The position numbers were made by a program, and so were the translations under genes. From positions 12,809-76,808 of the forward strand of contig DHFT01000039.1 of NCBI GenBank assembly GCA_002402375.1: a stretch of 64,000 nt of DNA. Direction: 5' to 3'. The notes beneath the pieces are model-generated. The model saw only the letters and a program-made list of their open reading frames with translations, did not search any database and was not told where the DNA came from. Within the stretch, counting starts at the first letter, position 1. The number at the start of each line of letters is the position of its first letter. The stretch comes from Elusimicrobia bacterium UBA4817 (GTDB lineage: Bacteria; Elusimicrobiota; UBA8919). This document shows, one piece after another, positions 2,020 through 53,857 of this stretch.

Positions 2020-4622
2020 TTTTGCTTTATAATTTTCTCAACGGATGATATCGCTTCATCCAGTTTTGAAATATCTTTTCCGCCGGCTTGTGCGAGGTCA
2101 ATTTTTCCGCCTCCTCCGCCGCCTACGATTTTTGATATTTCTTTTACAATTATTCTGGCATCAAATTTATCGGCGAGGTCTTTTGTAATTGACACAATGA
2201 GCGTCGGTTTTTCGTCAATAACAGAACCTAATACCACAATGCCTGATTTGATTTTGTTTTTCAGATTGTCGGAAGTGCTTCTGAGTTCATCTATGGATGT
2301 TATTTCCGTTTTTACCGCCAGTAGTTTTATGCCGTTGATTTCTTTAAGGTTTTTCAGTAAATCGTTTTCCTGTATTTTCGGTGTTTTTGAAATGCCCTTT
2401 TCAAGTTTTTTTTTATCGTCTGCAAGTTTTTGGAGTTTTGTAACGACTTCCGCCCGGGATGATTTCAATATCTCGGCCATTTCATCAATCGTTTCCCGCT
2501 GATTTTTCATAAAGTTATACGCTTCCATTCCGGTTATTGCTTCTATCCGCCGAAGACCGCTTCCGATACTGCCTTCGGATAAAATTATAAATTGTCCGAT
2601 TTCTCCGGTTGATTTACAATGAGTTCCGCCGCACAGTTCTACACTTTCAGGATTTTTTTCGTTTCCGGTAATGACGCACCGAACTTTCTCGCCGTATTTT
2701 TCGCCGAATAAAGCGAGCGCCCCCATTTTTTTTGCCTCGGCCACCGTCGTAATTTTTGTCGTCACTTTCAGATTTTCAAGAATTTTTTCATTAACATATT
2801 TTTCTATTAAAATCAGTTCCTCTTTTTTTAATTGTGTCGGATGGGAAAAATCAAATCTGAATCTGTCGTCGCTGACTTGTGAGCCGCGCTGAACGATATG
2901 GGTGCCGATAATTTGTCTTAAACTCTTATGCAAAAGATGAGTAGCGGTATGATTTCGCATAATGTTTTTTCTTCTTTCAAGAGCAATTTCGGCTCCAACC
3001 GTTTCGCCCGTTTTGATAATGCCTTTTATGATTTTTGCTCTGTGGATGATAAGGTTTTCAACCGGTTTCTGCGTATCAATAATTTCTACCTGACTTTGGA
3101 CTTCGGACTTCGGACTTCGGACTATTAACCTGCCCCTATCCCCAACCTGTCCGCCCGCTTCCCCGTAAAAAGGCGTCTCTTTTAGGATTATTTCCACCTC
3201 ATCGCCTTCGTTTGCCTGTTCAATAATTTTTCCGTCTTTTACTATTGCGGCTATTTTGGTTTTTGTTTTTGTCTCATCGTAGCCGGTAAAAACGGTATCT
3301 GCGAATTTTTTGTGAAGTTCAAAATAATTGCTCATATCAATATCTCCCGAACCTTTCCACGAAGTTTTGGAACGATTTTTTTGTTTCTCCATTTCTTCTT
3401 CAAACCCCTTGTCGTCTATAGATATTTCAGATTCAGCCAGAAGTTCTTTTGTTAAATCAAACGGGAAGCCGTAAGTATCATATAGTAAAAATGCATCTTT
3501 CCCGGAAATTGTTTTTCTGGATTTTTTTAATTCTTCAAGCATTTCAATCCCGCGCTCCAGCGTCATTAAAAATTTTTCTTCCTCCATTTTTATTATTCTT
3601 GCTATGTACTCGCGATTCAAATCCAGTTCAGGATATGCCGGTTTCATCGTCTCAACCACTTCAACTGCGATTCTGTAAAGGAACGGTTTGTCCATCTGCA
3701 ATTTTTTGCCGTGAGTAATTGCTCTTCTCAGGATTCTTCTTAAAACATAACCTCTTCCTTCATTGGACGGTAAAATGCCGTCGGAAATAAGAAATGTGAT
3801 TGCTCTCGCGTGGTCAGCAATTATTTTGGTAGATATATCATTTTTAATATCAGACAGGTTTTTTATAAAATCAATAATTCTTTTAAGCTCGTCGGTTTCA
3901 AAATTTGTTTTTGCCCTCTGAACCACCGCCGCCAGCCGTTCAAGTCCCATCCCGGTATCAATATTTTTTTGCGGAAGATTTTTTAATGTGCCGTCTGCTT
4001 GTTTGTCAAATTGCGTGAATACGAGGTTCCATACCTCAATATACCTGTCGCAGTCGCACCCCGGGCCGCAGGTTTTTTTGCCACAGCCGTTTCCTGTTCC
4101 CGTATCGTATAAAATTTCGGAACAGGGTCCGCAGGGACCGGTTTCTCCCATCTGCCAGAAGTTTGACGCCTCGCCTAATTTTACGATTTTGTTTAAAGGC
4201 AGGATTTTTTCCCAGATTTTGTATGCCTCGTCGTCATCTTTGTAGACGGAAGCGTAAAGTTTGTCCTTATCAAGTTTAAGTTCAACGGTCAGAAATTCCC
4301 ACGCCCACAAAATCGCTTCTTTTTTGAAATAATCGCCGAATGAAAAATTACCGAGCATCTCAAAAAACGTAAGATGTCTTGCGGTATGTCCGACATTTTC
4401 AATATCGGATGTCCTGAAACATTTCTGGACGGACGTCGCCCGCTGGTAATCGCTTTTGATTTTCTGCCTGCCTAAAAAATAATTTTTGAACTGCACCATT
4501 CCCGCCGATGTAAAAAGCAGCGTCGGGTCGGAAGAGGGCACCAGCGAGTCGCTCTTAAAAACGGTATGTTCTTTTTCTTTAAAAAACCTCAAAAATTTTT
4601 GTCTGATTTCGTTTGTAGTCAT
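2016..4622 (-). CDS. alaS: alanine--tRNA ligase
   Basis: 868 aa; N-terminus 'EIRQKFLRFFKEKEHTVFKSDSLVPSSDPTLLFTSAGMVQFK', class II catalytic core, editing domain (HxxxH), C-terminal GGGGG segment. Confidence 0.95.
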   Translation of the reverse strand: MTTNEIRQKFLRFFKEKEHTVFKSDSLVPSSDPTLLFTSAGMVQFKNYFLGRQKIKSDYQRATSVQKCFRTSDIENVGHTARHLTFFEMLGNFSFGDYFKKEAILWAWEFLTVELKLDKDKLYASVYKDDDEAYKIWEKILPLNKIVKLGEASNFWQMGETGPCGPCSEILYDTGTGNGCGKKTCGPGCDCDRYIEVWNLVFTQFDKQADGTLKNLPQKNIDTGMGLERLAAVVQRAKTNFETDELKRIIDFIKNLSDIKNDISTKIIADHARAITFLISDGILPSNEGRGYVLRRILRRAITHGKKLQMDKPFLYRIAVEVVETMKPAYPELDLNREYIARIIKMEEEKFLMTLERGIEMLEELKKSRKTISGKDAFLLYDTYGFPFDLTKELLAESEISIDDKGFEEEMEKQKNRSKTSWKGSGDIDMSNYFELHKKFADTVFTGYDETKTKTKIAAIVKDGKIIEQANEGDEVEIILKETPFYGEAGGQVGDRGRLIVRSPKSEVQSQVEIIDTQKPVENLIIHRAKIIKGIIKTGETVGAEIALERRKNIMRNHTATHLLHKSLRQIIGTHIVQRGSQVSDDRFRFDFSHPTQLKKEELILIEKYVNEKILENLKVTTKITTVAEAKKMGALALFGEKYGEKVRCVITGNEKNPESVELCGGTHCKSTGEIGQFIILSEGSIGSGLRRIEAITGMEAYNFMKNQRETIDEMAEILKSSRAEVVTKLQKLADDKKKLEKGISKTPKIQENDLLKNLKEINGIKLLAVKTEITSIDELRSTSDNLKNKIKSGIVVLGSVIDEKPTLIVSITKDLADKFDARIIVKEISKIVGGGGGGKIDLAQAGGKDISKLDEAISSVEKIIKQK

Positions 4623-6339: not shown

Positions 6340-7851
6340 TTAATGACGGAGATGGCGCATGCCTGTGAATACCATTGAGATTTTATGCTCGTTGCAGACG
6401 GTTATTGATTCGTTATCTTTTACCGAGCCGCCGGGCTGAATAATTGCTTTTACGCCGATTTTTGCTGCTTCGTTGACGACATCTTTGAACGGGAAAAATG
6501 CGTCGGAGGATAAAACAAGCGGTAGACGGTAGACGGTAGACGGTAGACGGATTAAGTTCATTTTCATTTTTGCGATTTTTAGTGAGTCAATCCTTGACAT
6601 TTGGCCGCCGCCGATTCCTACCGTTCGGGTGCCTCTGGCAAGGACGATTGCATTTGATTTTACATATTTTGCGACGGTAAAAGCAAATTTTAACGATTCC
6701 AATTCTTCTTTTGCCGGTTTTGTCTTTGTAACAATTTTTAACTTGTCAAAAATTTTGCTGTCCTTTTCCTGAACAAGAAAGCCGTCGGAAATACTGCGGA
6801 ACTCAAGCGATTGAGCAAGTGAGCGATTAAGCGAGTGAGTTAAAACTCTTAAATTTTGTTTTTGCGAAAATATTTTCAGCGCATCTTTTGAATAATTCGG
6901 CGCAATAACACACTCGGTAAAAATTTTTATTACGTCTCTTGCGGTTCTGCCATCCACGATTTTATTAAACGCTACAATTCCGCCGAATGCCGAAACGGGG
7001 TCGCAGGCAAGAGCATTTTTGTAAGCATCAAAAATAGTTTTAGCGGTTGCAACTCCACAAGGATTATTATGCTTTACAATCACACAAGCAGGTTTTTCAA
7101 ATTCGCAAACCAGATTAAAAGCAGAATCCATATCAAGATAATTGTTATAAGAAAGTTCTTTCCCTTGCAGTTGTTTTACACTTCCGACTTCCGACTTCCC
7201 ACTTCCGATATGGTAAACTGCCGCTTTCTGATGAGGATTTTCACCGTACCGCAAGTCGGAAAATTTTTTAAGTCCAACTGTTATTTTTTCTGGAAACTGC
7301 TCGTCGGTAAAATAATTTGAAATAATAGAATCATAATAAGCGGTATGGCTGAATGCCTTTGCCGCAAGTTTTTTTCTGAATGAAAAATCTATCTTTGAAC
7401 TTTTAATATTATCTATGATGTTAGAATAATCTTTCGTGTCGCAGACCGCCAGAACATTCTCAAAATTTTTTGCGGCCGCGCGGAGCATCGCCACTCCGCC
7501 GATATCTATATTTTCAACTGAAGGTTTTTCTTCAAACGGATAAAGATTTATAACGACGATATCAATCGCGTTAATTTTGTGTTTTTTCAACTCGTCAATA
7601 TGTTGTTTTGTCTTTTTTGCCAGTATTCCCGCGTGGATTTTCGGATGCAGTGTCTTTACCCGCCCGTCAAGGATTTCCGGAAAGCCAGTAATTTTTTCAA
7701 CCGAAACGACGGAAATTCCCACTTTTTTAAGAAACGTTACTGTCCCGCCGGTTGATATAATTTTGACATCCAATTTTTTAAGTTCTTTTGCAAATTCAAC
7801 AATTCCGGTTTTGTCCGATACGCTGATTAATGCTGTTTTAATAGTTTTCAT
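6340..7851 (-). CDS. purH: bifunctional AICAR formyltransferase / IMP cyclohydrolase
   Basis: 503 aa; MGS-like N-terminal domain (KTALISVSDKTG…GGT) and C-terminus 'SDAFFPF…IIQPGGS…MVFTGMRHLRH' matching PurH. Confidence 0.95.
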   Translation of the reverse strand: MKTIKTALISVSDKTGIVEFAKELKKLDVKIISTGGTVTFLKKVGISVVSVEKITGFPEILDGRVKTLHPKIHAGILAKKTKQHIDELKKHKINAIDIVVINLYPFEEKPSVENIDIGGVAMLRAAAKNFENVLAVCDTKDYSNIIDNIKSSKIDFSFRKKLAAKAFSHTAYYDSIISNYFTDEQFPEKITVGLKKFSDLRYGENPHQKAAVYHIGSGKSEVGSVKQLQGKELSYNNYLDMDSAFNLVCEFEKPACVIVKHNNPCGVATAKTIFDAYKNALACDPVSAFGGIVAFNKIVDGRTARDVIKIFTECVIAPNYSKDALKIFSQKQNLRVLTHSLNRSLAQSLEFRSISDGFLVQEKDSKIFDKLKIVTKTKPAKEELESLKFAFTVAKYVKSNAIVLARGTRTVGIGGGQMSRIDSLKIAKMKMNLIRLPSTVYRLPLVLSSDAFFPFKDVVNEAAKIGVKAIIQPGGSVKDNESITVCNEHKISMVFTGMRHLRH

Positions 7852-8329: not shown

Positions 8330-9360
8330 ATTTCAATGATACTATATTTTTTTTCTCCGAGTCCGAGTTTTACTGCGTAATCAAGTTGCACCGAGTAATC
8401 AATATCCGGAAATATGTGCTTGAAAAAATCGCTGCCGAATTTTTTGTTAACCAGTTTAAAAGATGCCGTATCAATCGCTACTGGGTCGCAAGATGCCAAA
8501 ATTCCTATATCGGGAATTTGCGGACTCTCTTTTGTCTCGTAGCAATCGCAGAATTTTGTTATGTAGTTCAGAAAATTTATGTAAATCGCTTTTTTATTTT
8601 TTAAGCACCCTGCGGCATATTCCGCCATTTTTTCCTGTAAGTTTTTCACGGATTCATCCCATGGAATTTTTATCGCATATTGCTCACAGGACAAAATACA
8701 TTCGCCGCACCCGATACAGGCAGTTTTATTTATTATAATTTTTTTATTCACAAGTTTCAAGGCATTTGACGGACACCACTTAATACAATTGCCGCATCCG
8801 ATACACTTTTCAGGTTTAATTTCAGGTTTTACGGAATTATGCATTTCGTATTTTCCGGCCCGTGCCCCGCAACCCATTCCGATATTTTTGATTGCCCCGC
8901 CGAACCCGGAAATCTCATGTCCCTTGAAGTGGGTTAAAAAAATAAATTTATCCGTATAATAAATATCCCGCGCGATTTTTACGGATTTAAAATGTTTTAG
9001 ATTTACATCAACATCTATGTAAGAATTTCCCCGCAGCCCGTCGGCAATTATTATCGGGCATCCGCAAATACCGAAACCGTGTTCAATCGCAATATTAAGA
9101 TGGTCAACGGCATTTGCCCGGCTTCCCCTGTAGATTGTATTTGCGTCGGTTAAAAACGGTTTTCCGCCGCGCGATTTTACAATTTCAACAATCGGTTTTA
9201 CATATTCGGGTTTGATGTAACCCTTGTTTCCTTTTTCTCCGAAATGAATTTTAATTGCTACGAAATCATTTTTAGAAACGAGCGAATTTATTCCCGATTT
9301 TTCCGCTATTTTTTTTACCGTTTCTGCCGAAAACGTCTTTGTGAAATATACATTACTCAT
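8326..9360 (-). CDS. DUF362-domain protein with two 4Fe-4S ferredoxin motifs
   Basis: 344 aa; 'CIGCGNCIKWCP' and 'CIGCGECILSCEQ' CxxCxxCxxxCP clusters embedded in a DUF362-like fold. Confidence 0.6.
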   Translation of the reverse strand: MSNVYFTKTFSAETVKKIAEKSGINSLVSKNDFVAIKIHFGEKGNKGYIKPEYVKPIVEIVKSRGGKPFLTDANTIYRGSRANAVDHLNIAIEHGFGICGCPIIIADGLRGNSYIDVDVNLKHFKSVKIARDIYYTDKFIFLTHFKGHEISGFGGAIKNIGMGCGARAGKYEMHNSVKPEIKPEKCIGCGNCIKWCPSNALKLVNKKIIINKTACIGCGECILSCEQYAIKIPWDESVKNLQEKMAEYAAGCLKNKKAIYINFLNYITKFCDCYETKESPQIPDIGILASCDPVAIDTASFKLVNKKFGSDFFKHIFPDIDYSVQLDYAVKLGLGEKKYSIIEI

Positions 9361-9769
9361 AAAATCCCGTCTTTTTGCGGTTTTCCTTTTTTAGTGATTG
9401 CAGATGTTTGTTTTTTAGAATTTTTTCCTTTGCCCGTTTGGACCGTTTTCTTTTTTGCCGTCTTATCTTTTCTATTCTCTGTTGTTCCTTGCTTTTTATC
9501 CCAAGCAGCATCCGTTCAATTTTATCCGTCAGTATGCGTCTTGCAATAAAACGGTTCAATAACTGCGACCGTTCCCGCTGGCATTTTATTTCAATTCCGG
9601 TCGGAGTATGTTTCAGATAAACGCAAGTTGACACTTTGTTAAGATTTTGTCCGCCCTTGCCGCTTGACCGCAAAAATTTTTCTTCAATATCTTTTTCGTA
9701 TATGCCCAGTTTAAGCATTTTCTCTTCAAGCGATTTTTGTTTTTGCGAATTTATTCCGAGGTTAATCAT
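9353..9769 (-). CDS. arfB: alternative ribosome-rescue factor ArfB (GGQ-motif peptidyl-tRNA hydrolase)
   Basis: 'SSGKGGQNLNKVST' GGQ motif plus a highly basic C-terminal tail. Start moved to the internal ATG (MINLGINSQ…) forming an ATGA overlap with the upstream stop at 9766. Confidence 0.7.
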   Translation of the reverse strand: MINLGINSQKQKSLEEKMLKLGIYEKDIEEKFLRSSGKGGQNLNKVSTCVYLKHTPTGIEIKCQRERSQLLNRFIARRILTDKIERMLLGIKSKEQQRIEKIRRQKRKRSKRAKEKILKNKHLQSLKKENRKKTGFYE

Positions 9770-10138
9770 AATTTTAATTTTCCGATAATGTCGTCGGCAA
9801 TTCTCTGCGGTTTTAAGTTTGAATTGACGCATACAAGCGTGGTTTTTCCGGTGACGAGCATTCGTTTTGTCTCTTTTTCTTCAATTCTGTATGAGAGTTC
9901 CAGACGGGTGCCGGCAGCAGATTCAAGTTGTGTTTGAATAATAATTGTTTCGCCGTATCTTGCGGGTGATTTATAATCTAATTCGGCGTGTGCAACAACA
10001 AACAGAATTCCCTGTTCGGCGAGTTGTTTAACGCTTATGTCTTTTTCCAAAAACCACTCGGTTCTTGCCCTCTCAAAATATGTTAGGTAATTGGCATAAT
10101 AAACTAGGCCGCCGCAATCGGTGTCCTGATAATAAATT

Positions 10139-10149
<11 letters not shown>
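9766..10149 (-). CDS. YbgC/4HBT-family hotdog acyl-CoA thioesterase
   Basis: 127 aa; 'YYQDTDCGGLVYYANYLTYFERARTEWF' hotdog-fold thioesterase signature. Confidence 0.7.
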
Positions 10150-12632
<2,483 letters not shown>

Positions 12633-14911: not shown

Positions 14912-15527
14912 AAAATCCCGCCTTTTTTAGAGTTTCAAGTGTTATTTTATTTTTTTCTTTTTGTTGCAAAACATATTTTGCAAGAATGTCGGTTTCCAAA
15001 TTAACGGTATCTCCGTTTTTTTTTTCTTTAAGTGTCGTGTTATTTAATGTATGAGGAATTATTGCCGTTGAAAATGAATTTGTTTTTTTTTCCGCTACCG
15101 TTAAACTGATTCCGTCAATAGCCACCGAACCCTTTTCTGCGATATATTTTGACAGATTTTCAGGTATTGAAAATTGCCAAATTTCCGAATTCCCCGATTT
15201 TTTTATTTTTAATATTTTTCCGGTTCCGTCAATGTGTCCCGTAACGAAATGTCCGCCTAATTTACCGTCGGATTTTAATGCTCTTTCAAGATTAATAATG
15301 CTTCCAATTTTTAATTCTCCCAAATTTGTTTTTTTTAAGGTTTCTTCGGAAATGTCAGCCGTGAACTCGTGAACTCGTGAACTCGCTAAATCGCTAACTG
15401 TCAAACAAATACCGCTAACACAAATACTGTCGCCAATGTTTATATCATCAAGTTTTGTCTCGACGGTAATTTGTGTTTTATTTATTTTTTTTACAGTTCC
15501 TAAATCTTCAATTATTCCAGTGAACAT
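14904..15527 (-). CDS. ribE: riboflavin synthase alpha subunit
   Basis: 'MFTGIIEDLGTV' N-terminus and the internal duplicated lumazine-binding repeat. Start moved to the internal ATG. Confidence 0.9.
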   Translation of the reverse strand: MFTGIIEDLGTVKKINKTQITVETKLDDINIGDSICVSGICLTVSDLASSRVHEFTADISEETLKKTNLGELKIGSIINLERALKSDGKLGGHFVTGHIDGTGKILKIKKSGNSEIWQFSIPENLSKYIAEKGSVAIDGISLTVAEKKTNSFSTAIIPHTLNNTTLKEKKNGDTVNLETDILAKYVLQQKEKNKITLETLKKAGFYD

Positions 15528-17668: not shown

Positions 17669-17701
17669 GAATAAATTCACCTTTACAAAAAACATATTAT
17701 A

Positions 17702-17843
17702 CTCTTCTATCATCCGGACTTTACCGTCGGTATCTGAATTTCACAGATTCGGTCCCGAACATTTTTAATAAAAAATGTGAGAGATTAGCGGACTTTTACC
17801 GCCGGTCGGGAATTCCTGTTTAGGTCACCCCACCCCGAAGAGT
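17702..17843 (-). promoter_or_regulatory. FMN riboswitch (RFN element) leading the rib operon
   Basis: The minus strand reads 'CTCTTCGGGGTGGGGTGACCTAAACAGGAATTCCCGACCGGCGGTAAAAGTCCGC…GGGACCGAATCTGTGAAATTCAGATACCGACGGTAAAGTCCGGATGATAGAAGAG', matching the RFN consensus blocks GGGG(C/T)GGGTGAAATTCCC, GACCGGCGGTA.AAGTCCGC and CCGACGGTAAAGTCCGGATG. Confidence 0.85.
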
Positions 17844-17849
17844 AATGTA

Positions 17850-17877
17850 ATTATACAAAAAATAAAATAAATGTCAA
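17850..17877 (-). promoter_or_regulatory. sigma70-type promoter (TTGACA-N16-TATAAT) for the FMN riboswitch / rib operon
   Basis: The minus strand reads TTGACA, 16 nt, TATAAT, ending about 7 nt before the aptamer 5' end. Confidence 0.5.
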
Positions 17878-18797
17878 TTAAATTTTTTGGAAAAAGAAAT
17901 ATAAGTGGTTCTGTCAAACACGCTGTTGACGGCACTTGCAAAATCAAATCCGAAATCCTTCCATAGTATTCCGATCCCGAAATTTGTTCCGTTAATTTTT
18001 CCCGCTTTGTTGAGATATCCGCCTCTTAAAAAAAGCCAGTTGAGGTAAGAGTACTCGCCGCTGAATCTCGGACGGAATATATCATCTTTTTCCCGTAAAA
18101 AATCAAAAGATACGTCAAAATTATTTTCGCGGTTATTTAACAGGGTATATGACAGTCCGCATCGGACGGAACTTGGCAGGTCGTCTTTTACAGGGTCGTT
18201 GGAATAAATGACCTTTGTTCCGAAATTTTCGCCGGAAAATCCGAGTTTAAGATTTCTTACAAAATCAACTTTATATAAAATTCCGAAATCAATTGCTTGG
18301 GCGTTCCCGATAGTTTTTCCAAAAATGGGATTTTTTTCATATCTGTAAATGTATTTTAGATTTATTCCGAAGGAGAGATTGTGAAAAAGATTTCTTCCAT
18401 AGGCGACAGAAAACGCCCAGTCGTTCCATATCAGTTCGCCCATATCGTAGTTAAATTCGTCGGTAACGGGTATCGGGGTAATTCTGTAACTTAATATGCC
18501 GATAGCCATGGCGCCATGTTTTTTTAGCGACAACAGTCCGCCGAGATACTGCATAACGGCATCGCCTTGAGGCGCCGGCGAATGGGAAAAAGTTATTTCG
18601 CTTTCCGAATCCGCAATGCCTGCCGGATTATGAAAAAATGATGATGCGTCTAATTTTGTTGCGGCGGATGTTTCAGCTAAAGAAATTATTCTTGCGCCTC
18701 CTGCCAGTTTCAGAAAATCGGCGCCGGTGTGAGTGGAAGCGTAGAGGCAATTAAAAATTAAAAATGGAAAATTAAAAATTAAAATGATTGTTTTCAT
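17874..18797 (-). CDS. FadL/PorV/PorQ-like outer-membrane beta-barrel protein (T9SS-associated?)
   Basis: 307 aa, signal peptide, N-terminal 'GADFLKLAGGARIISLAETSAATKLDASSFFHNPAGIA' FadL/PorV-like motif, alternating beta-strand pattern; tandem paralogue of the next gene. Confidence 0.5.
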   Translation of the reverse strand: MKTIILIFNFPFLIFNCLYASTHTGADFLKLAGGARIISLAETSAATKLDASSFFHNPAGIADSESEITFSHSPAPQGDAVMQYLGGLLSLKKHGAMAIGILSYRITPIPVTDEFNYDMGELIWNDWAFSVAYGRNLFHNLSFGINLKYIYRYEKNPIFGKTIGNAQAIDFGILYKVDFVRNLKLGFSGENFGTKVIYSNDPVKDDLPSSVRCGLSYTLLNNRENNFDVSFDFLREKDDIFRPRFSGEYSYLNWLFLRGGYLNKAGKINGTNFGIGILWKDFGFDFASAVNSVFDRTTYISFSKKFN

Positions 18798-19741
18798 TAA
18801 AATTTGCAGTTCAGCGTAAATCTGTTAACGTCGGTCAATTTTTCATGTGAGGTGAATGAGTAGTCAATGGAGATTATTTTTGCCGAAAATCCCGCACCGA
18901 AAGAATAGTTCTGCAATGTTGTATATCCCGCCCGCAGTTTGAAATTTTTGACGGCGTTAAGTTCAACTCCCAAATTACCGTTCAAGATATTTTCTCTCTG
19001 TCTAACCCCGTCAACGGACAAAAGCAGTTTATCAAAATTCCTGCTTATTCCCAGTCGCAATTCCGACGGTAAAACGTCCTTTTCGCCGCCGAATGAAATT
19101 TTACTGCCTACATTTCTTATACAAAAACCGAAATCAAAAGGCAGGTTGTAGCCGGAATATAATAATCCCAAATCCGCCGCAATTGCCGTTGCCGATTCCC
19201 CTGCCAGTTTCTCGTTCAGATATTTTACGGTTATTCCTGCATCCAAAGGATAGATTTTTCTTGCGTAGGAAATACCGGCGACCGCGTCGCTGTTTAAGAA
19301 TTCGTCCCGTCCTATTCCGCGTTCATCTCTTTCAACATCTTTTGATGACAGATATTTTAATGTTATGCCGATGTTTCCTTTAATTTTTTGGATGTATGTT
19401 GAGAACTTCATATCCTCAAGATTGACATCTTCAAAATATTCCGAATGCGAAAAAGAAAAATTATAGTCGGGCAGGTTTGAAATTGCTGCGGGATTAAAAT
19501 CCAACGCTCCAAGATTTTCCGATAAGGATGTGACCGCTTCCGCCATGGCGGATGTTTTTGCCTCGGGGCTGATTCGTAGCAACAGTCCGGCAGATGTTCC
19601 GGTGTCAGAGGCAGAGAACAAAGTTAAAGGTATAAGGTTAAAGGTTAAAATAAAGCAGATGAAAAATGAAAAATGAAAAGTTGAAATTTTGGCAGTATTT
19701 AGACCTTTAACTTTTAATTTTAACCTTCTTTTTATTTTCAT
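18797..19741 (-). CDS. FadL/PorV/PorQ-like outer-membrane beta-barrel protein (paralogue)
   Basis: 314 aa, signal peptide, 'GTSAGLLLRISPEAKTSAMAEAVTSLSENLGALDFNPAAIS' motif, C-terminal Phe; start overlaps the downstream gene. Confidence 0.5.
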   Translation of the reverse strand: MKIKRRLKLKVKGLNTAKISTFHFSFFICFILTFNLIPLTLFSASDTGTSAGLLLRISPEAKTSAMAEAVTSLSENLGALDFNPAAISNLPDYNFSFSHSEYFEDVNLEDMKFSTYIQKIKGNIGITLKYLSSKDVERDERGIGRDEFLNSDAVAGISYARKIYPLDAGITVKYLNEKLAGESATAIAADLGLLYSGYNLPFDFGFCIRNVGSKISFGGEKDVLPSELRLGISRNFDKLLLSVDGVRQRENILNGNLGVELNAVKNFKLRAGYTTLQNYSFGAGFSAKIISIDYSFTSHEKLTDVNRFTLNCKF

Positions 19742-21279
19742 TTTTTTATGACTGTAATCTTTCCTTTACAGGAATCAGTTTGGGTTTTTGCTGCATAAAA
19801 ATATATTCCCGATGCAACAGTAGAACCATTTTCATTTTTGCCGTCCCATATAACGGAAGTTCCGCTGCCGTCAATTTCTCTGACGAGGTTTCCTTCCAAA
19901 TTATAAATTTTTATGTTTATCACAGAGTTATCCGGGAAATTTTTTATTGTCAGATTTCCGGTTGAAGGGTTATAAGGGTTCGGTGCGTTGACGACATAAT
20001 TTAATGACTGCGGTCCGTAGGTCACTTTTGAATAATAATCAGCCAAAAACTCATCCCAGTTTGTCGCCTGACAGAAACTTAAATTTTCATAATTACCGTC
20101 GGGATTATTCCAAATTTCCCAATCATCTTTTGTTTTCGGAAAGTTTATAGAAAGTCCGTGTGAATTTTTATGGGTGCTTCCAACTCTGTTTGCGAGCACA
20201 CAATCATTAATGGAGTCCATTACATTGCTCGCAGAGTTTCTCAAAGACGCCGAGTCCAAATCGGGGTTTTGTTCAATAATATAGGCTAAATCATAAATGT
20301 CAATTCCGCCGTATTGAACATTGCTTGATTCACCGTAATAATCAACCGCATCTCTTGTAAGATATAAAGGAATAGTTTTTTTTGTTGAGATAAGTTGATA
20401 TGCAAAATTATCTATTGCCGCCGCCAACTCGCCGATTTTTGACAAATCCACTGCCGATGCGGTTCTTTTATCAAGCACTGAAGAAAAATAAGAAACTGCC
20501 TCGTCGGAATACGCCTTATCCCAGATGTCAACAATTTTTTGCGAGAATGTTTTCGGGTCATAATTCGGATTTGAAACAAGTTCCGTCAAAATTCCGTCAT
20601 AAGGCCAGCCGTATTCGTTTTCTTCGGAGGCAACCATATAGTTCGCAGAATCTTTTATCTGATATGCGATTTCAATTTGTGCCATAAGGCATGCGTCCAA
20701 TCCGATGATGTCAATATTTTTTCCGAGATATGTTTTTATCGTAGAAAGTGCGTTTCCGAGTTCCGCCGTTGTCAGATAATCATTGTCGTCGGTAGTATCG
20801 TCCCATGCTATTCCTTTTTTTAGTTTTGGTGATTTGGGCCACCATCCGCCTCCGTGATTCCACACGACAAGACAATAATTTTCCGCCGGATAATTCGCTA
20901 TTGTCCATGTTGAAAATACGACAAGCGTTGCGTGGTCGCCTGTGTTCAATTCATTTGTTGTTGCAGACGGAAGTAAATTTGCAATAGTTATTGTAGGCGT
21001 GTTTATTGTGAATGTGTCGGTATCGTTTTGTATTTTGTAAAGGTAAGTATTACCGTCGCCGTTTTTATCCGCAAGAACAATTATGTTTACATCAGTTGAA
21101 TTTGCGGCAACTTCCATTTTGTTTATGTCCCGTTTCAACTGGTCGCCTTTCAGTGATGTATCAAGAGAATTATCACCTGCGATGTAGACGATAAATGTCC
21201 ATTTTGCCGCGGATAAAAATGTGCTAAAAAATATGGACAGGCATAATACCTGTCCATATTTAAGAATTTTTTTTGTCAT
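19738..21279 (-). CDS. clostripain-like (C11) cysteine peptidase with T9SS C-terminal sorting domain
   Basis: Signal peptide; 'WTFIVYIAGDNSLD', His-Gly dyad 'VVWNHGGGW', catalytic Cys 'IGLDACLMAQIE'; C-terminal approx 80 aa 'KIYNLEGNLV…SGIYFYAAKT…KITVIKK' matching the Por-secretion CTD pattern. Confidence 0.75.
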   Translation of the reverse strand: MTKKILKYGQVLCLSIFFSTFLSAAKWTFIVYIAGDNSLDTSLKGDQLKRDINKMEVAANSTDVNIIVLADKNGDGNTYLYKIQNDTDTFTINTPTITIANLLPSATTNELNTGDHATLVVFSTWTIANYPAENYCLVVWNHGGGWWPKSPKLKKGIAWDDTTDDNDYLTTAELGNALSTIKTYLGKNIDIIGLDACLMAQIEIAYQIKDSANYMVASEENEYGWPYDGILTELVSNPNYDPKTFSQKIVDIWDKAYSDEAVSYFSSVLDKRTASAVDLSKIGELAAAIDNFAYQLISTKKTIPLYLTRDAVDYYGESSNVQYGGIDIYDLAYIIEQNPDLDSASLRNSASNVMDSINDCVLANRVGSTHKNSHGLSINFPKTKDDWEIWNNPDGNYENLSFCQATNWDEFLADYYSKVTYGPQSLNYVVNAPNPYNPSTGNLTIKNFPDNSVINIKIYNLEGNLVREIDGSGTSVIWDGKNENGSTVASGIYFYAAKTQTDSCKGKITVIKK

Positions 21280-21282
21280 TTT

Positions 21283-23316
21283 TTATTTTAATACAACCGC
21301 CCGTTTTGTTCCGATTTCTTTTCCGTTGACGGTGAGACGGTAATAATAAACGCCCCTGGAAAGTTTGTCGCCGGAATCATATTTTACAGAGTGTTCGCCT
21401 TGCGTCTGGTCTTCGTCAACAATGGTATCAACTTCCTGTCCCGCTACATTGTAAAGTTTGATGGATACCCTGCCGCCCTCCGGTATAAAATAATTAAATG
21501 TCGTCGCCGGGTTAAACGGGTTGGGATAATTCTGACCGAGCGTTGCCTGTTTTACGCCCCCGTCTTCAGATTCAACTTCATCATCAACATCACTTCTTGA
21601 TGTCGCATAAGAGGAGCCGACGGTTACCGTCGGTTGTTTGGAAATTGCCGTAAGTGTTCCGCCGTTTCCCGCTGTTCTTGTCGTAAATTTTGCCGTGCCT
21701 TCCGACGGTTGTGTGGTAAATTTGAGGTATGAAAGTTTTAACTTGTCGCCGCTTCCGTACGCGAGCCGGTCAGCGGGTATCCCTGTTATTGTAACTTTTT
21801 GCCCCGAAACAGAAGCCGTCAGTTTATATGATGTCGTCCGATATTTATAAATATACGCCTTGACATATCCCTTGCCTGTTGATGCTGTGTTTTGAGGCGA
21901 TGTCCATCCGGTCGGAATCGTTACCTCCGCCGTTCCGCTTCCGAGTGAGCCCGCTGCTGACGGCGTCAGAGTGTATGTTATTGATGTGTAATATGTGCTT
22001 GGTGCTACGCCTTTTTTGGAAAGTGATGTTGTTCCGCTTCCGTCAGCACCTGTTTGAGTTGAACCTCCGCCGCTTCCGAGGTTTCCCGCATAGTATCTGT
22101 TCAAGAAATCATCCCACTTGTTTGCCGATTCAGAACCGTACAAAATTGCAGATGTATAGGCACTATCATAATATGATTTTGTTTTCGGGAAATAAACGCA
22201 CATTCCGTAAGAACCGTATTTTGCCGTATCATTTCTCGGCGAGGTAAATCTTGTTTTTACAACTGCGTCGGTTACTGCGGTTTTTAACTCTGATGCCGCC
22301 GTCTGAATAGAAGAACTTGTAACCTTGCTTCGGACCTGTTCTGCAAATCTGTAGATATCAAGTCCGTAATAACCGTCTGATTCCGAATACGCCTTGCAGT
22401 TTTCTCTGGCGGATTTTATTGATGTTAATTGCGAGTTATCGTTCATCGCATCTGCAAACGCATTCAGTTTTAATACAAGGTTGCTGACTTTCGGTATATC
22501 AATTGCCGATTGTGTTATTGCTTCCGATGTCGGATATGATTCTGCATATTTGTTGACTATTGTTTCGCCAAGTTGTTTCGGTGTCGCCGTCGGATTTGTC
22601 GCAAGCCATGAAAGAATTGTGTCGTGAGGCCAGCCGTCGCCCGGTTCCGTCTCTTCCGAGCCGACCATTACACCGTCGGTAGTATTTATTACATTTCTTA
22701 ATTCGTAAGCAACTTCCAGATGTCCCATAAGGCAGGCATCCATACCGATTAAATCAAAAGTATGTGATGCATTCTGGATTGCTGTTCTTACTTCTTTCAT
22801 ATAAAGACAATCATCGTTGTTCCCGTCGTCCCAGCATATTGCTCTTTCCATCGGCGAAAAAGAAATTGAGCGGTCGCGCCATCCGCCGCCGTGATTCCAC
22901 AAAACGAGCGCATACCTGTCCGCCGGATAATTAAGCCACACCCATGTTATAAAATTTGTGAGGGTTGTCGGCGAGCCCATATTTGATTCGCCGAGGTCTT
23001 CAAGCGCGTTTGCTGTCGTCGGCGTCATACCTTTTGTCACTTTGAATCTTTTACATGTTTTCCAGTCGCCGTAAGTTGTATCATAACCGGATGCCCTGTC
23101 AAACTGGACAACGATGTTTATATCGGCGTTGCTTCCCACCTTTGCCATTTCCAGAAAATCATTTACACCGGCGTCTTCAAGATTGTTGTCGGCGTCCAGA
23201 TAAACGGCGTAAGTCCATTTTGCTTTTGCGAAACACGGATTAACGCAGATAACACCGCAGATTAACACAGATAAAAACAATCCTGCCAATCCTACTGTCC
23301 AAACCCTTTTCAACAT
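21283..23316 (-). CDS. clostripain-like (C11) cysteine peptidase with T9SS C-terminal sorting domain (paralogue)
   Basis: Signal peptide; 'WTYAVYLDADNNLE', 'LVLWNHGGGW', 'IGMDACLMGHLE'; Ser/Thr/Gly-rich middle region; C-terminal 'KLYNVAGQEV…RGVYYYRLTVNGKEIGTKRAVVLK' CTD. Confidence 0.75.
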   Translation of the reverse strand: MLKRVWTVGLAGLFLSVLICGVICVNPCFAKAKWTYAVYLDADNNLEDAGVNDFLEMAKVGSNADINIVVQFDRASGYDTTYGDWKTCKRFKVTKGMTPTTANALEDLGESNMGSPTTLTNFITWVWLNYPADRYALVLWNHGGGWRDRSISFSPMERAICWDDGNNDDCLYMKEVRTAIQNASHTFDLIGMDACLMGHLEVAYELRNVINTTDGVMVGSEETEPGDGWPHDTILSWLATNPTATPKQLGETIVNKYAESYPTSEAITQSAIDIPKVSNLVLKLNAFADAMNDNSQLTSIKSARENCKAYSESDGYYGLDIYRFAEQVRSKVTSSSIQTAASELKTAVTDAVVKTRFTSPRNDTAKYGSYGMCVYFPKTKSYYDSAYTSAILYGSESANKWDDFLNRYYAGNLGSGGGSTQTGADGSGTTSLSKKGVAPSTYYTSITYTLTPSAAGSLGSGTAEVTIPTGWTSPQNTASTGKGYVKAYIYKYRTTSYKLTASVSGQKVTITGIPADRLAYGSGDKLKLSYLKFTTQPSEGTAKFTTRTAGNGGTLTAISKQPTVTVGSSYATSRSDVDDEVESEDGGVKQATLGQNYPNPFNPATTFNYFIPEGGRVSIKLYNVAGQEVDTIVDEDQTQGEHSVKYDSGDKLSRGVYYYRLTVNGKEIGTKRAVVLK

Positions 23317-23357
23317 ACCCTTCCTCCCGCCACCGTATCTATTGAATTTCTATTATT

Positions 23358-23386
23358 GTAATAACACAAAAATCAAAATTTGTCAA
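23358..23386 (-). promoter_or_regulatory. candidate sigma70-like promoter (TTGACA-N17-TATTAC) upstream of the C11 peptidase genes
   Basis: The minus strand reads TTGACAAATTTTGATTTTTGTGTTATTAC, about 40 nt upstream of the 21283..23316 start, which has a GGGAGGAAGG ribosome-binding site. Confidence 0.35.
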
Positions 23387-23394
23387 GTAGTTTT

Positions 23395-24672
23395 CTAAAA
23401 ACCGAAGCCCATTCCGAAGACCGTCTGTGATGTGGTTAAACTTATTTTATCGGTTTCGTTCTTTATGTCTCTTGTAAAGGAATATAAATTTCCCGATGAG
23501 CGATATTCCAAAAACGCCGATGCCGTTTCACCCAGTTTAATCCTTAATCCGAGCGGTATTCTGAACAGGAATCCTACATTAAATTGGTCCAGCGGTTTTT
23601 TCCATGTAGAGCCGTGGTACTGGTAAATGTAAGGTGATGTTGTATTATTCAAGGTTAATCCGATGCCGAGTCCGAGATAAGGTTGAACCGTTCTGCTTGA
23701 AAAACGGAAAAGTAAATCAAACGCCATAAGGTAAGTATTGACTTTGAGATAATCGTCAACATAAAAATTGAATGCGCTTGTTGAGAGGTCATTTAGGGTT
23801 ACCGTTGTTTTTTGTGCGGTGATTTTTTGCGCATAATGGGATATTTCTCCTTCAAAACCCAGCAGTTTCCCCGACCCGTAGCCGCCCATTCTGACACCCC
23901 AGAGTAGTCCGTCGCTTTCCGTTTCAAGGTCTTCCCAATCTATCTTGGAATAGGTCGGGTCGGTGGAAGAATAGGTTCCGTTTCCGTTCATATCAAGAGA
24001 TAATTCATACTCGTAAATCCGGGTTGAACTATTTTCAAAACTGAGATTTATTTTTCCGGTCCCGCTTCCGCCGAGAAAAATATCTACGAATGTGTCCAAT
24101 TTTTTTACGGGAGTGTAAGACGGCTGATACGGTTGTTGCGCGCTCACTGCCGGTTGTTGCATTTGTTGATTCACCGTCGGTTGCACCGTCGGCATATCCG
24201 ACCATATTTTTTTTACTTCAACGGAAGACGTGGCGATAACTTCCGCCGTTTCCGTGTTTATCAACCGCGCATTTATTTCCACCATTCCGTTTTCTACATC
24301 AAGGAGAGTTCCGGTTATAATTGCACCGACACCTAAAATCTTTCCGATTTTTTTTGTGCTTTCAACATCAATTATACCGGTTGTGCCGAGATTTTGTTCC
24401 GTCAAAACCTTTTCAAGAAGTTGTCTTTCTATTACCTGGAATTTTTTTAATTTTACTATTCGGGTTGTTAAACGTTCGGAAACGATAGCCCCGCCTTCCG
24501 ACTTTCTGCCGTCAAGGTAAATAAAAGGCATTATTGCTATTTTGGTTTGCGGCAATAAAGACGCCGAATCCGAGAACTCTTTTGCCATTTTATTATATGC
24601 GTCCTCGCGTGCAAAAGTTTTTGATGAGAGTATTAACAATAAAACAAATAAGACGTAATACTTTTTTTTCAT
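23395..24672 (-). CDS. outer-membrane lipoprotein: LpoB/CsgG/TolB-N-like periplasmic domain, Gln/Pro-rich linker, C-terminal beta-barrel
   Basis: Start moved to ATG 'MKKKYYVLFVLLL' (GAGGGGGA ribosome-binding site). 'IAIMPFIYLDGRKSEGGAIVSERLTTRIVKL…FQVIERQLLEKVLTEQNL…KIGKILGVGAIITGTL…VEINARLINTETAEVIAT' pattern, then a QQPxxQP linker, then alternating beta-strands ending 'GMGFGF'. Confidence 0.5.
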   Translation of the reverse strand: MKKKYYVLFVLLLILSSKTFAREDAYNKMAKEFSDSASLLPQTKIAIMPFIYLDGRKSEGGAIVSERLTTRIVKLKKFQVIERQLLEKVLTEQNLGTTGIIDVESTKKIGKILGVGAIITGTLLDVENGMVEINARLINTETAEVIATSSVEVKKIWSDMPTVQPTVNQQMQQPAVSAQQPYQPSYTPVKKLDTFVDIFLGGSGTGKINLSFENSSTRIYEYELSLDMNGNGTYSSTDPTYSKIDWEDLETESDGLLWGVRMGGYGSGKLLGFEGEISHYAQKITAQKTTVTLNDLSTSAFNFYVDDYLKVNTYLMAFDLLFRFSSRTVQPYLGLGIGLTLNNTTSPYIYQYHGSTWKKPLDQFNVGFLFRIPLGLRIKLGETASAFLEYRSSGNLYSFTRDIKNETDKISLTTSQTVFGMGFGF

Positions 24673-24924: not shown

Positions 24925-25866
24925 TTATTTAGTATACTCTATTTCTTTCAATTTGTCAATATATTTTTCCGCTGAAAATGCCGCAATTGCTCCGTCGGAA
25001 CAAGCAGTGATGACTTGTTTTAATAATTTTTTTCTGCAGTCACCCGCAGCAAAAATTCCCGCTCTATCCGTTTTCATTTCATCGTCGGTGATTATGTAAC
25101 CGTTTTCATCAAGTTTTAAGATATTTTTGATATACTCGGTATTAGGATCATAGCCGACGAACATAAAAACGCCATCTACAGTTATTTCAGTTTTTTCGGA
25201 TGTTAAAATATTTTCTACCAGTACGCTTTCAACTTTTTGAGCGCCTTTAATTTCCATAAGCCGTGAATTCCACATAAAGTTTATTTTTTTATTTGTGAAT
25301 GAAGTGAATGCTCTTTCCTGTAAAATTTTTGTCGCACGCAGTTTGTCCCTTCTGTGAATCACCAAGACCTTATCCGCAAATTTTGTCAGAAAAAGCGCTT
25401 CTTCAATTGCTGTATCTCCTCCGCCGACTACTGCAACCGTTTTATTTTTATAAAGCGCTGCATCGCAGGTGGCACAGTAAGAAACACCCCTGCCTATGAA
25501 TTCTTTTTCGCCGGGAATTCCTAATTGTTTTGGTTTTGCACCCGTCGATATTATCAAGGAAAGTGCGGCATAAGTTTTGCCGTCCGTTTTAACTTCCATA
25601 TTTTTTTCTGTATAATTGATTGAGGTAACCTCTTGTGAAATAATTTCCAGCCCGAATTTTTCGGCCTGACTTTTGAAATTCAAAACAAGTTGGACTCCGC
25701 CGATACCGTCGGGAAAACCCGGATAATTCTCAATAAGAGCGGTGGCGACTGCCTGCCCGAATATTGAATAGTTGTCAATCAAAAGTGATTTCAGTCGTGC
25801 CCGTGAGGCATAAATTCCGGCAGTTAATCCCGCGGGTCCCCCGCCTATAATTATTACATCATACAT
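24925..25866 (-). CDS. trxB: thioredoxin-disulfide reductase
   Basis: 313 aa; FAD motif 'YDVIIIGGGPAGLTAGIYA', redox-active 'CATCDAALY', NADPH GxGxxA motif. Confidence 0.9.
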   Translation of the reverse strand: MYDVIIIGGGPAGLTAGIYASRARLKSLLIDNYSIFGQAVATALIENYPGFPDGIGGVQLVLNFKSQAEKFGLEIISQEVTSINYTEKNMEVKTDGKTYAALSLIISTGAKPKQLGIPGEKEFIGRGVSYCATCDAALYKNKTVAVVGGGDTAIEEALFLTKFADKVLVIHRRDKLRATKILQERAFTSFTNKKINFMWNSRLMEIKGAQKVESVLVENILTSEKTEITVDGVFMFVGYDPNTEYIKNILKLDENGYIITDDEMKTDRAGIFAAGDCRKKLLKQVITACSDGAIAAFSAEKYIDKLKEIEYTK

Positions 25867-31118: not shown

Positions 31119-32579
31119 TCAAGGTTTTGCAGGCGGGTATTTTTCCAGCAGAGTAATAATTTCTTTATTTTTATATGCCTTTGCCTTATCCAGAGCAGTT
31201 TGTCCGTCGCTGTCTTTAGCGGTGGTATCTGCTCCGTTTTCAATCAATAATTTTGCACCCGCCGAGAAATCCTTTTTCGCGGCATACATAAGTGCGGTTG
31301 AACCGGTTATATCTTTTGAGTTAACATTCGCGCCTTTTTCAAGAAGTAATTTCACCGTTTCGGTTGAGTTTTTCTCCGCCGCCAGCATTAACGCGGATTT
31401 TTTGGAAATATATTTTAAGTTGACGTCTGCTCCCGCGTTTATAATGAGTGAGGATATATTTGAAAAATCATTATTTATGGCAACCGATAATGCCGTTTCA
31501 CCGGATTTGTTTTTTATATCAAGTTTCGCATTTTTGTCTATCAGTAATTTTGCCACATCAAAAGAATTGTTTTTTAAGGCAATAAGAAGCGGGGTATCGC
31601 CGTCTTTGTTTTTTTTGTTGAGATTTGCTTTTTTGTCAATCAGTGATTTCGCCGTTTCGTAATAATTTTTCTTTGCTGCGAGCATAAGAGCAGTTTGGCT
31701 TTCATTATTTGTAATGTTTATTTCCGCCCCGTTTACTATAAGCATGCCTGCAATTTCCGGAGAATCATTTTTTAACGCAATCAAAAGTGCCGTATCGCCG
31801 TTTTTGTTTTTTTGATTCAGGTTTGCCCCGTTTTCCAAAAGAAATTTTATCGCATCAGAAGAGTTTTTCCCGGCCGCCCACATCAGCGGCGTTAATCCGT
31901 AATTATCTTTTGCATTTATTTCCGCATTTTTTTTGAGCAGCAGTTTTACCGTATCCGTTGCATTTTTTGCCGCCGCCATCATTAAAGGTGTTTCGCCGAA
32001 TGAGTTTCTGCCATTAACATCGGCTCCCTTTTCAATAAGCAATTGGGCAAAACCGGAGTAATTTTGTCCGGCGACCGTCGTTAAAAGCGTATTGCCGTAA
32101 CCATCTTTTACGGTTATATCTGCACCCTGTTTAATCAGTAATTCGGCGGCATCCATAGAATTGTTGTTTGCCGCTATCGTCAAAGGTGTCTTGTCAAACA
32201 GATCTTTTGCGTTGACGTTTACGCCTTTTTCAATCAGCAGTTCGGCGACATCTTTTGAATTGTGAAGTGCGGCAATTCCCAGAGTTGTCATACCCAAAGA
32301 GTTCACGGCGTTGACATCCGCGCCTTTTTCTATGAGCAATCTCGCTATATCAATAGCATTTGTCGTCGCTGCGAGCATAAGCGGCGTTTCGCCGAATGAA
32401 TTTTTTGCATTTACATCAGCGCCTTTTTCTATCGCTTTTTTTATTTTTACCGTGTTTCCGCCGGTAATATCTTCCTTTGAAATTACAGGTACTGCGGCGG
32501 TAAGATAGCCGGTTGAAAATAAAAAAATAATTATAAACGATAATATTTTTCTGTTTATTTGGAGTATAATTTTAACCAT
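31119..32579 (-). CDS. secreted ankyrin-repeat protein (about 13 ANK repeats)
   Basis: 486 aa; N-terminal signal/TM segment followed by tandem 33-aa repeats 'G.TPLM.AA..N….KLLI.KGADVNAK'. Confidence 0.85.
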   Translation of the reverse strand: MVKIILQINRKILSFIIIFLFSTGYLTAAVPVISKEDITGGNTVKIKKAIEKGADVNAKNSFGETPLMLAATTNAIDIARLLIEKGADVNAVNSLGMTTLGIAALHNSKDVAELLIEKGVNVNAKDLFDKTPLTIAANNNSMDAAELLIKQGADITVKDGYGNTLLTTVAGQNYSGFAQLLIEKGADVNGRNSFGETPLMMAAAKNATDTVKLLLKKNAEINAKDNYGLTPLMWAAGKNSSDAIKFLLENGANLNQKNKNGDTALLIALKNDSPEIAGMLIVNGAEINITNNESQTALMLAAKKNYYETAKSLIDKKANLNKKNKDGDTPLLIALKNNSFDVAKLLIDKNAKLDIKNKSGETALSVAINNDFSNISSLIINAGADVNLKYISKKSALMLAAEKNSTETVKLLLEKGANVNSKDITGSTALMYAAKKDFSAGAKLLIENGADTTAKDSDGQTALDKAKAYKNKEIITLLEKYPPAKP

Positions 32580-47110: not shown

Positions 47111-47289
47111 TTTTCCTCCAAAATTTTTATTTACTATTTTTCCATTTCTACTTTTAACCTGACGCGTAGCGTCACACTGAACTTGATTCAGTGTCTCGTT
47201 GAGAGATGCCGAAACTAGTTCGGCATGACACTTCGTGTCACTTTTAAGTTTTTATTTTCATTTCTGCCTCCCTTTCTCTCGAAGAGAAT

Positions 47290-47440
47290 TTTATTGCAGA
47301 CAGACAGATTTCCTGACTCAGGTTCGTCCGAAATTTCGCCTTCCCATCCCTATTTATCCGGACAGTGGCATTTATGAAATTTCATCCCCTTCACAGTAGC
47401 GGGACTGTTCCGGAATTACACCGGATTCCCTATTCTGCCT
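47290..47440 (-). promoter_or_regulatory. cobalamin (B12) riboswitch #1
   Basis: The minus strand reads 'AATAGGGAATCCGGTGTAATTCCGGAACAGTCCCGCTACTGTGAAGGGGATGAAA…AATGCCACTGTCCGG…GGGAAGGCG', containing the B12 box GCCACTG and the conserved GGTG.AA.TCC / CCCGC.ACTGT elements. Confidence 0.85.
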
Positions 47441-53689: not shown

Positions 53690-53850
53690 AAAAAACCCAA
53701 CTCCAGAGAAGTTGAGCAAACTTTCTCCCCGCGGAGTTTTTGTAATTGATAGACCGGGCTTCGCTTCGCTCGGTCGGACTAAAATCCGACCTACAAAAAC
53801 ATCACCGTTGCGGGGCAGCTTCCGAATTACACGGAATTCCTTCAATTACA
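53690..53850 (-). promoter_or_regulatory. cobalamin riboswitch #2 with terminator-type expression platform
   Basis: The minus strand reads 'GAAGGAATTCCGTGTAATTCGGAAGCTGCCCCGCAACGGTGATG…AAGCCCGGTC…CGGGGAGAAAG', nearly identical in its conserved blocks to riboswitch #1. It is followed by 'CAACTTCTCTGGAGTTGGGTTTTTTGTTT' (hairpin plus U-tract) just before the cobO ATG. Confidence 0.75.
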
Positions 53851-53857
53851 ATTTTTA

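Follow-up and report, generated by a model that had tools for sequence, protein, structure and literature searches.

A recurrent cassette of two C11 peptidases and two PorV/PorQ-family barrels in Elusimicrobiota, a probable cell-surface protease complex

Within a 64-kb stretch of contig DHFT01000039.1 from Elusimicrobia bacterium UBA4817 (the whole of which is referred to here as the window), four adjacent genes, designated G2 to G5, encode two clostripain-family cysteine peptidases that end in C-terminal sorting domains (CTDs) resembling those of T9SS, the type IX secretion system, followed by two small outer-membrane barrels of the PorV/PorQ family. This G2-G5 cassette is found again, with differing flanks, in some ten independent loci of Elusimicrobiota, and most likely builds a cell-surface protease complex in which each C11 peptidase is anchored by a cognate barrel through its CTD. 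The components are of known kinds, and the novelty lies in the association of type-A-like CTDs with cis-encoded mini-PorV barrels, in the two-protease/two-barrel cassette and in its occurrence in a phylum outside the Fibrobacteres-Chlorobi-Bacteroidetes (FCB) group. Coordinates are positions in the window (Table 1), and L-numbers denote the loci of relatives, from genomes and metagenomes, that were used for comparison.

Five open reading frames (ORFs), G1 to G5, span 17874-24672 on the minus strand, with an overlap of 4 bp (ATGA) between G3 and G4 and of 1 bp (TAATG) between G4 and G5, and with gaps of 3 bp between G2 and G3 and 78 bp between G1 and G2. A sequence-only reading of this DNA had described these five packed genes and their overlaps, had assigned G2 and G3 as C11 (clostripain) peptidases with T9SS-type CTDs and G4 and G5 as paralogous small FadL/PorV/PorQ-like barrels, and had proposed a module of cargo plus dedicated shuttle or anchor. 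The ORFs were confirmed as described, each of the family assignments was borne out by profile searches, and the module itself was strongly backed by synteny across about ten loci, with G1 falling outside the conserved unit.

Both peptidases were recognised with wide margins by the Peptidase_C11 model (PF03415; 204.5 bits for G2 and 183.8 bits for G3, cut-off 25.8), and the catalytic dyad is present in each within the motifs WNHGGGW and DACLM (His142/Cys195 in G2, His142/Cys197 in G3). The two motifs are unchanged across 13 G2 orthologues, and every G2 orthologue keeps the His/Cys dyad, as do 9 of the 10 G3 orthologues. In G2 the catalytic domain (amino acids (aa) ~34-410) is followed by a middle domain rich in beta structure (aa ~411-590), then by an acidic linker and finally by a type-A CTD; the orthologues of G2 are 57-89% identical, and every one with a named source is from Elusimicrobiota. 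The two proteins share 32% identity and are a pair derived from an ancient duplication and kept together. The best sequence matches of the C11 enzymes in the PDB were clostripain (9cip, E 3e-21) and a clostripain-related protein (6n9j), and they share with clostripain and with the structurally solved Bacteroidales clostripain-related proteins (MEROPS C11) the C11 domain, the His/Cys dyad and the D-A-C motif. They differ from clostripain in scoring far below its equivalog cut-off (TIGR02806; 122.6 and 86.1 bits, cut-off 550), in bearing a T9SS-type CTD, in the additional beta-rich domain of G2 and in being retained as a duplicate pair. As read from the translations, both N-termini consist of a basic n-region, a hydrophobic core and an A-x-A-type site (CFA/KAKW and LSA/AKW, the slash marking the cleavage position), and both proteins are predicted to be exported by Sec. 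In one relative, the G2 orthologue is divided between two ORFs (L006 1095-3180, as 1095-1472 and 1492-3180), which represents a frameshift or an assembly error.

The CTDs of both peptidases pass the type-A model TIGR04183 (34.3 for G2 and 23.9 for G3, cut-off 23), with G2 orthologues scoring 26.9-33. For the related model PF18962, G3 passes at 27.4 and G2 falls slightly below the cut-off of 27 at 26.7; G3 additionally matches CHU_C at 29.4 bits, and the type-B model TIGR04131 was not reached by these CTDs (18.9, cut-off 35). Both domains extend to the last residue of proteins that begin with a Sec-type signal. The CTD of G2 is 70-95% identical among orthologues, and its conservation therefore exceeds what a disposable signal would need. 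That of G3 matches the C-terminal end of the PorZ model (NF052228, 57.1 bits; aa 412-511 against profile positions 656-756 of 757), as do three of the four G3 orthologues tested (48.7, 47.2 and 32.9 bits), and the same three orthologues weakly match the C-terminus of the PorU model (NF033707, 18-22 bits). These matches are confined to the CTD, the full-length cut-offs for PorZ (260) and PorU (420) not being reached, and G2-type CTDs match the generic type-A model alone. By these comparisons, the G3 CTD resembles the retained CTDs of PorZ and PorU.

The barrels G4 and G5, which share 27% identity, pass the PorV/PorQ family model NF033709 (147.6 and 149.8, cut-off 90), as do their orthologues (98-176) with the exception of the G4 orthologue in L006 (70.6). 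Within the family, G4 scores higher against PorQ than against PorV (106.7 versus 69.6) and G5 scores 92.5 on the PorV model. The same assignments were found among the orthologues, with PorQ best for those of G4 in L004 and L011, that in L006 matching the family model alone and under its cut-off, and with PorV best for all three of the G5 orthologues tested. The PorP/SprF model TIGR03519 was not reached by the barrels (14.3, cut-off 90.55). Structure predictions covered G1 and G5, and the barrel fold is that of the FadL superfamily, with ~14 strands and PorV as the nearest solved structure; PorV was clearly the best structural match and the sole sequence match in the PDB.

A profile search for the wider barrel family in 1.84 billion representative proteins returned 12,724 matches at E <=1e-3 and 62 at E <=1e-30, mostly of ~300 aa, and ten longer matches were surveyed for fusions. 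Among the fusions (P0326, P0338, P0356, P0414 and P0403) are proteins of 770-1050 aa with Reg_prop repeats (of beta-propeller type) N-terminal to a C-terminal PorV-like barrel; other fusions consist of an N-terminal barrel followed by periplasmic TPR repeats or by an OmpA domain. A barrel fused to an LpoB-like domain occurs in addition at L004. PorZ is composed of two beta-propellers plus a CTD, and the Reg_prop-barrel chains look like PorZ-PorQ fusions. Because these barrels are fused to partner or periplasmic domains, static anchors fit better than free shuttles.

The order G2-G3-G4-G5 was recovered with one-to-one orthologues in L004/L005, L006, L008, L009, L010 and L011 (BLASTP against the ORFs of these loci), and the same arrangement of C11/CTD ORFs followed by PorV-like barrels was found by local hidden Markov model (HMM) scans of the metagenome loci L018, L019, L022 and L026. 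In the most distant of the orthologous loci, L006, identities are 64% for G2, 39% for G3, 25% for G4 and 35% for G5 and the flanking genes are unrelated; since one-to-one orthologues extend to this locus, both duplications are older than the cassette's spread, and none of the four genes has been lost since. Scanning metagenomes with the G2 profile identified 78 C11 loci, among which PorV-like neighbours were present beside the G2 orthogroup only, with one related locus (L023) in addition, and the ~70 other C11 loci contain no PorV-like barrel by local HMM searches.

This linkage appears to follow the CTD. Across the Elusimicrobiota loci, PorV-family ORFs are, with few exceptions, found immediately downstream of an ORF that ends in a CTD and in the same orientation, and 7-8 such CTD/barrel cassettes carry non-peptidase cargo, comprising adhesin-like proteins with CarboxypepD_reg repeats, a C39-like protein, and very large proteins of 2912 aa and >2516 aa. 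In the genome RIFOXYA2_FULL_39_19, at least four PorV-family genes each stand behind their own CTD protein, and L004 contains four CTD proteins and four PorV-family barrels within 21 kb. The position of a CTD gene directly upstream of nearly every barrel gene is consistent with binding between CTD and barrel. It also bears on a very improbable alternative, in which G4 and G5 would be FadL-type channels importing hydrophobic products of the peptidases and the C-terminal domains would be simply Ig-like or FlgD-like stalks. That reading loses ground because barrels of this kind also come after adhesin-like CTD proteins that are not enzymes, thus tracking CTDs rather than peptidase activity, and because PorV is their best match in structure and in PDB sequence; in addition, they score ~150 bits on the PorV/PorQ family HMM, and the great majority of C11 loci do without them.

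Under the preferred reading of a surface protease complex, the two peptidases, taken to be active, would be exported by Sec, would each retain their CTD, and would each be captured and held at the outer face of the outer membrane by their own PorV/PorQ-family 14-strand barrel, with an SprA-type translocon, if one is present, providing the route across the outer membrane. G3, with its PorZ-like CTD, would likely be paired with the PorQ-like G4, and G2, with its generic type-A CTD, with the PorV-like G5, since G4 scores best against PorQ, G5 scores best against PorV and the G3 CTD matches the C-terminus of PorZ. The role of such a complex is likely to be extracellular or surface proteolysis, probably Arg/Lys-directed as judged by analogy within the family, for peptide nutrition or for the processing of surface proteins.

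Several observations weigh against this reading. The gene order is C11-C11-barrel-barrel and not that of two simple cargo-barrel cassettes, so the proposed pairing is a guess. Neither barrel reaches the corresponding equivalog cut-off (G4 106.7 against 220 for PorQ, NF033711; G5 92.5 against 250 for PorV, NF033710), and G5, which is ~95 residues shorter than the PorV of Flavobacterium johnsoniae (307 versus 402 aa), may be without the long loops by which PorV reaches into SprA and binds CTDs. The rule linking CTDs to barrels has an exception in L023, on a 98-kb metagenomic contig, where a C11 protein 43% identical to G2 (8917-11620), with the middle domain present and the CTD absent, lies directly downstream of a PorV-like barrel. 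Finally, T9SS genes are described in reviews as occurring in Bacteroidota and some other FCB phyla and as absent elsewhere (PMC11285876), and a systematic scan placed the system in Bacteroidetes only (PMC4793230).

As to the host lineage, wherever homologues of G1, G2 and G5 have a named source it is an Elusimicrobiota metagenome-assembled genome (MAG), all of the genome loci retrieved with the G5 profile are likewise from this phylum (8/8 Elusimicrobia), and NCBI taxonomy places Elusimicrobiota directly under Pseudomonadati, outside the FCB group. No literature was found tying Elusimicrobia to T9SS, PorV, SprA or the sorting domain. A second alternative, considered unlikely, is one in which an ordinary T9SS with a full set of SprA, PorKLMN and PorU would be encoded elsewhere in the genome, G2 and G3 would be routine cargo whose CTDs are cleaved, and G4 and G5 would be the PorQ and PorV of the host or spare paralogues. 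The scores of the CTDs and barrels above their family cut-offs are in keeping with it, as are the preference of G4 for PorQ and of G5 for PorV in the window and in most orthologues tested, and the labels given to orthologues by the NCBI pipeline ('T9SS type A sorting domain-containing protein', 'clostripain-related cysteine peptidase' and 'PorV/PorQ family protein'). However, the several CTD-paired PorV-family genes of RIFOXYA2_FULL_39_19 and the four barrels of L004 are unlike the pattern described for Bacteroidota, such as F. johnsoniae, in which type-A CTDs all use one PorV (PMC12618676). The PorV and PorQ equivalog cut-offs are widely missed, the restriction of T9SS to FCB phyla in the literature argues against this alternative also, and the 56 window ORFs included no recognisable core gene of T9SS, 43 flanking ORFs having been judged by eye from their N-termini and ten of these scanned with Pfam.

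The closest known counterparts of a retained CTD-barrel pair are found in Porphyromonas gingivalis, where the CTDs of PorU and PorZ are uncleaved and stay bound to PorV and PorQ; cognate PorV-like barrels have been proposed to shield CTDs from cleavage (PMC10202324). The arrangement predicted here from the genes resembles these pairs in that a CTD protein would be held by a PorV/PorQ-family barrel with its CTD unremoved, in that one partner is a clan CD Cys/His peptidase, and in the scores themselves, the G3 CTD matching the C-terminus of PorZ (57 bits), G4 scoring best against PorQ and G5 against PorV. It differs in that both soluble partners are C11 peptidases, with neither a C25-type PorU nor a propeller PorZ, in that the barrels are of only ~300 aa and below the equivalog cut-offs for PorV and PorQ, and in that, unlike the attachment complex of P. 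gingivalis, the four genes form one cassette and the host belongs to Elusimicrobiota.

These parallels raise a further alternative, judged quite improbable, in which the cassette would be the counterpart of PorU-PorV-PorZ-PorQ and would serve the many other CTD proteins as their CTD signal peptidase or sortase, in place of a nutritional role. PorU, a gingipain-type (C25) Cys/His peptidase, belongs like C11 to clan CD, whose enzymes often transpeptidate. The four-part make-up of the cassette parallels that of the attachment complex, the G3 CTD is similar to the retained CTDs of PorZ and PorU, and G2, its CTD included, is unusually conserved, with 64% identity at a distance at which G5 has 35%; in L004 and L026 the cassette is moreover found amid other pairs of CTD proteins and barrels. 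On the other hand, G2 and G3 are both peptidases, whereas PorZ is a non-catalytic propeller protein, and the PorZ and PorU matches do not go beyond the CTD. RIFOXYA2_FULL_39_19 has CTD/barrel cassettes and yielded no close G5 orthologue, although this is a weak negative obtained by pattern scan, and secreted proteases in which C11 is joined to other C-terminal domains of many kinds are common.

Anchoring of each peptidase by its own barrel, as preferred here, also has a partial precedent in F. johnsoniae, in which type-B substrates show genetic linkage to PorP/SprF carriers of their own (PMC12618676), an arrangement that serves specific targeting or anchoring. As in those pairs, the cargo gene adjoins its own barrel gene and there are many pairs per genome; unlike them, the CTDs are type-A (TIGR04183) and the barrels belong to PorV/PorQ rather than PorP/SprF. 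TIGR04183 domains have been found in phyla without reported structural T9SS genes, such as Poribacteria (PMC3909097); in contrast to that case, the CTD genes of Elusimicrobiota occur with PorV-family barrel genes in cis, and thus with at least one T9SS-type partner. A broader and more speculative proposal, which is regarded as doubtful, is that Elusimicrobiota run a pared-down display of CTD proteins on PorV-family barrels, independent of SprA and PorKLMN and with an individual mini-PorV barrel for each CTD protein, in which the C11 pair and its barrels would perhaps form a PorU/PorZ-like processing centre, and which would represent either an ancestral core of T9SS or an independent re-use of sorting parts.

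T9SS has been regarded as an invention of Bacteroidota or the FCB group, with one PorV carrier for all type-A CTDs, and this locus and its relatives present type-A-like CTDs and PorV/PorQ-family barrels in Elusimicrobiota as cis-encoded pairs. If a translocon is present, the phyletic range of T9SS is wider and carrier specificity extends to type-A signals; without one, CTD and barrel together make up a sorting unit that stands by itself, and ideas on how T9SS arose can be put to the test. On the practical side, these loci offer natural matched sets of CTDs and barrels for recognition studies and for surface display.

Table 1. Genes, domains, regulatory sites and tandem repeats at the G1-G5 locus (window positions)
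Feature	Position	Strand	Description
G1	23395-24672	-	425 aa from MKKKYY; identical gene call in independent assembly
G2	21283-23316	-	677 aa; C11 peptidase + CTD
G2 CTD	21286-21534	-	aa 595-677 of 677 (local CTD HMM); TIGR04183 aa 597-668; generic type-A
G3	19738-21279	-	513 aa; C11 peptidase + CTD
G3 CTD	19741-19992	-	aa 430-513 of 513 (local CTD HMM)
G4	18797-19741	-	314 aa; PorV/PorQ-family barrel, nearest PorQ
G5	17874-18797	-	307 aa; PorV/PorQ-family barrel, nearest PorV
Promoter-like site TTGACA-17-TATACT, 11/12	24931-24959	-	upstream of G1; consensus scan only, no proof of function
Consensus promoter, 12/12	17877-17850	-	consensus scan; downstream of G5
Flavin mononucleotide (FMN) riboswitch	17698-17846	-	96 bits; ahead of ribD-ribE-ribBA-ribH
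Terminator-like hairpin	17658-17640	-	precedes ribD
AATTAAA x5.1, 86% matches	18749-18784		Tandem Repeats Finder (TRF); signal-peptide coding region of G5
GTTAAAG x3.9	19623-19649		TRF; signal-peptide coding region of G4
ATGAAAA x3.0, perfect	19659-19679		TRF; signal-peptide coding region of G4

The gene upstream of the cassette, G1, had been read from the sequence as an LpoB/CsgG-like lipoprotein-barrel fusion forming a five-gene operon with G2-G5. The two-part composition is probably right, with a predicted periplasmic domain like LpoB or TolB-N that is joined through a disordered linker rich in Q and P (aa ~162-190) to a small OmpA/NspA/OmpW-like barrel, and with HMM matches to FlgO (35.3 bits) and, partially, to CsgG (47.6 bits). 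The assignment as a lipoprotein is not, as there is no lipobox cysteine at the cleavage site in G1, nor in its L008 orthologue; the N-terminus (MKKKYYVLFVLLLILSSKTFAREDAY) is cysteine-free and carries a predicted signal peptide ending in LLLILSSKTFA, with RED following the cleavage position, suggestive of Sec export. A function as a CsgG-like secretion channel was likewise rejected. Membership of the conserved unit had also to be given up: G1 adjoins G2 in a close clade only (the window, L008 and L016+L009), the cassette occurs without it in L011 and L006, and G1 homologues of ~50% identity stand alone in L003 and L017. In L004, a fusion with the opposite domain order to that of G1, a PorV/PorQ-family barrel (101 bits) followed by a C-terminal LpoB/CsgG-N-like domain, lies upstream of the cassette (L004 3297-4664), between a giant CTD protein and the cassette.

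The direction shared by G1-G5 is uninformative because the window has 56 non-overlapping ORFs that reach 100 aa and every one of them is on the minus strand, a strand bias that is complete over 64 kb. The downstream end of the cassette is marked by the promoter, FMN riboswitch and hairpin that serve ribD, and the promoter-like site upstream of G1 is a possible, candidate start of the transcription unit.

The 5' coding regions of G4 and G5 contain tandem arrays whose unit length is not a multiple of 3, and other 7- or 8-nt arrays are present at the same site in orthologues. The repeats noted in the sequence-only reading are real, and the suggestion that they make these genes phase-variable was unsupported, because three independent assemblies (the window, L001 and L002) do not differ here in sequence or in copy number, and because period-7 and period-8 arrays occur window-wide, including within essential genes. 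Further 7- or 8-nt repeats of 3-4.6 perfect or near-perfect copies were located at 3098-3123, 6520-6550, 7180-7208, 12032-12061 and 15360-15385, in alaS-, purH-, ligA- and ribE-like ORFs, where they are read in frame as loops of ~10 aa, and their units are related (the GACTTCG / ACTTCCG / CGGAAGT family). When counted across the window, perfect arrays with three or more copies are confined to periods 7 and 8 (five arrays, mostly in the same alaS-, purH-, ligA- and ribE-like ORFs), against an expectation of none from Markov simulations, and the repeat segment of ligA is 5 aa longer than in one orthologue. Taken together, the repeats point to a genome-wide mutational habit that is tolerated by flexible regions, not to phase variation.

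In a related MAG, a hairpin-rich element of ~75 nt (beginning GTCATGCTGAACTTGRTTCAGCATC) lies in frame within the TTTTTAAT repeat where the G4 and G5 orthologues encode their signal peptides, with sites at L010 3626-3650, 4564-4588 and 12930-12954 and at L019 5565-5589 and 6503-6527. A third copy is present elsewhere in that locus and none in the window, and the element looks like a miniature mobile element.

Elsewhere in the window, a cobalamin riboswitch (47286-47470, minus strand, 100.6 bits) precedes a TonB-dependent receptor and an ATP-binding cassette (ABC)-type uptake cluster, and a second cobalamin riboswitch (53731-53901, minus strand) was detected at 32.5 bits, barely over the gathering score. 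An ORF at 31119-32579 (minus strand) encodes a protein of 486 aa with a hydrophobic, signal-like N-terminus that is composed almost entirely of ankyrin repeats (Ank_2, 364 bits), a eukaryote-like repeat type, here in a host MAG of free-living type.

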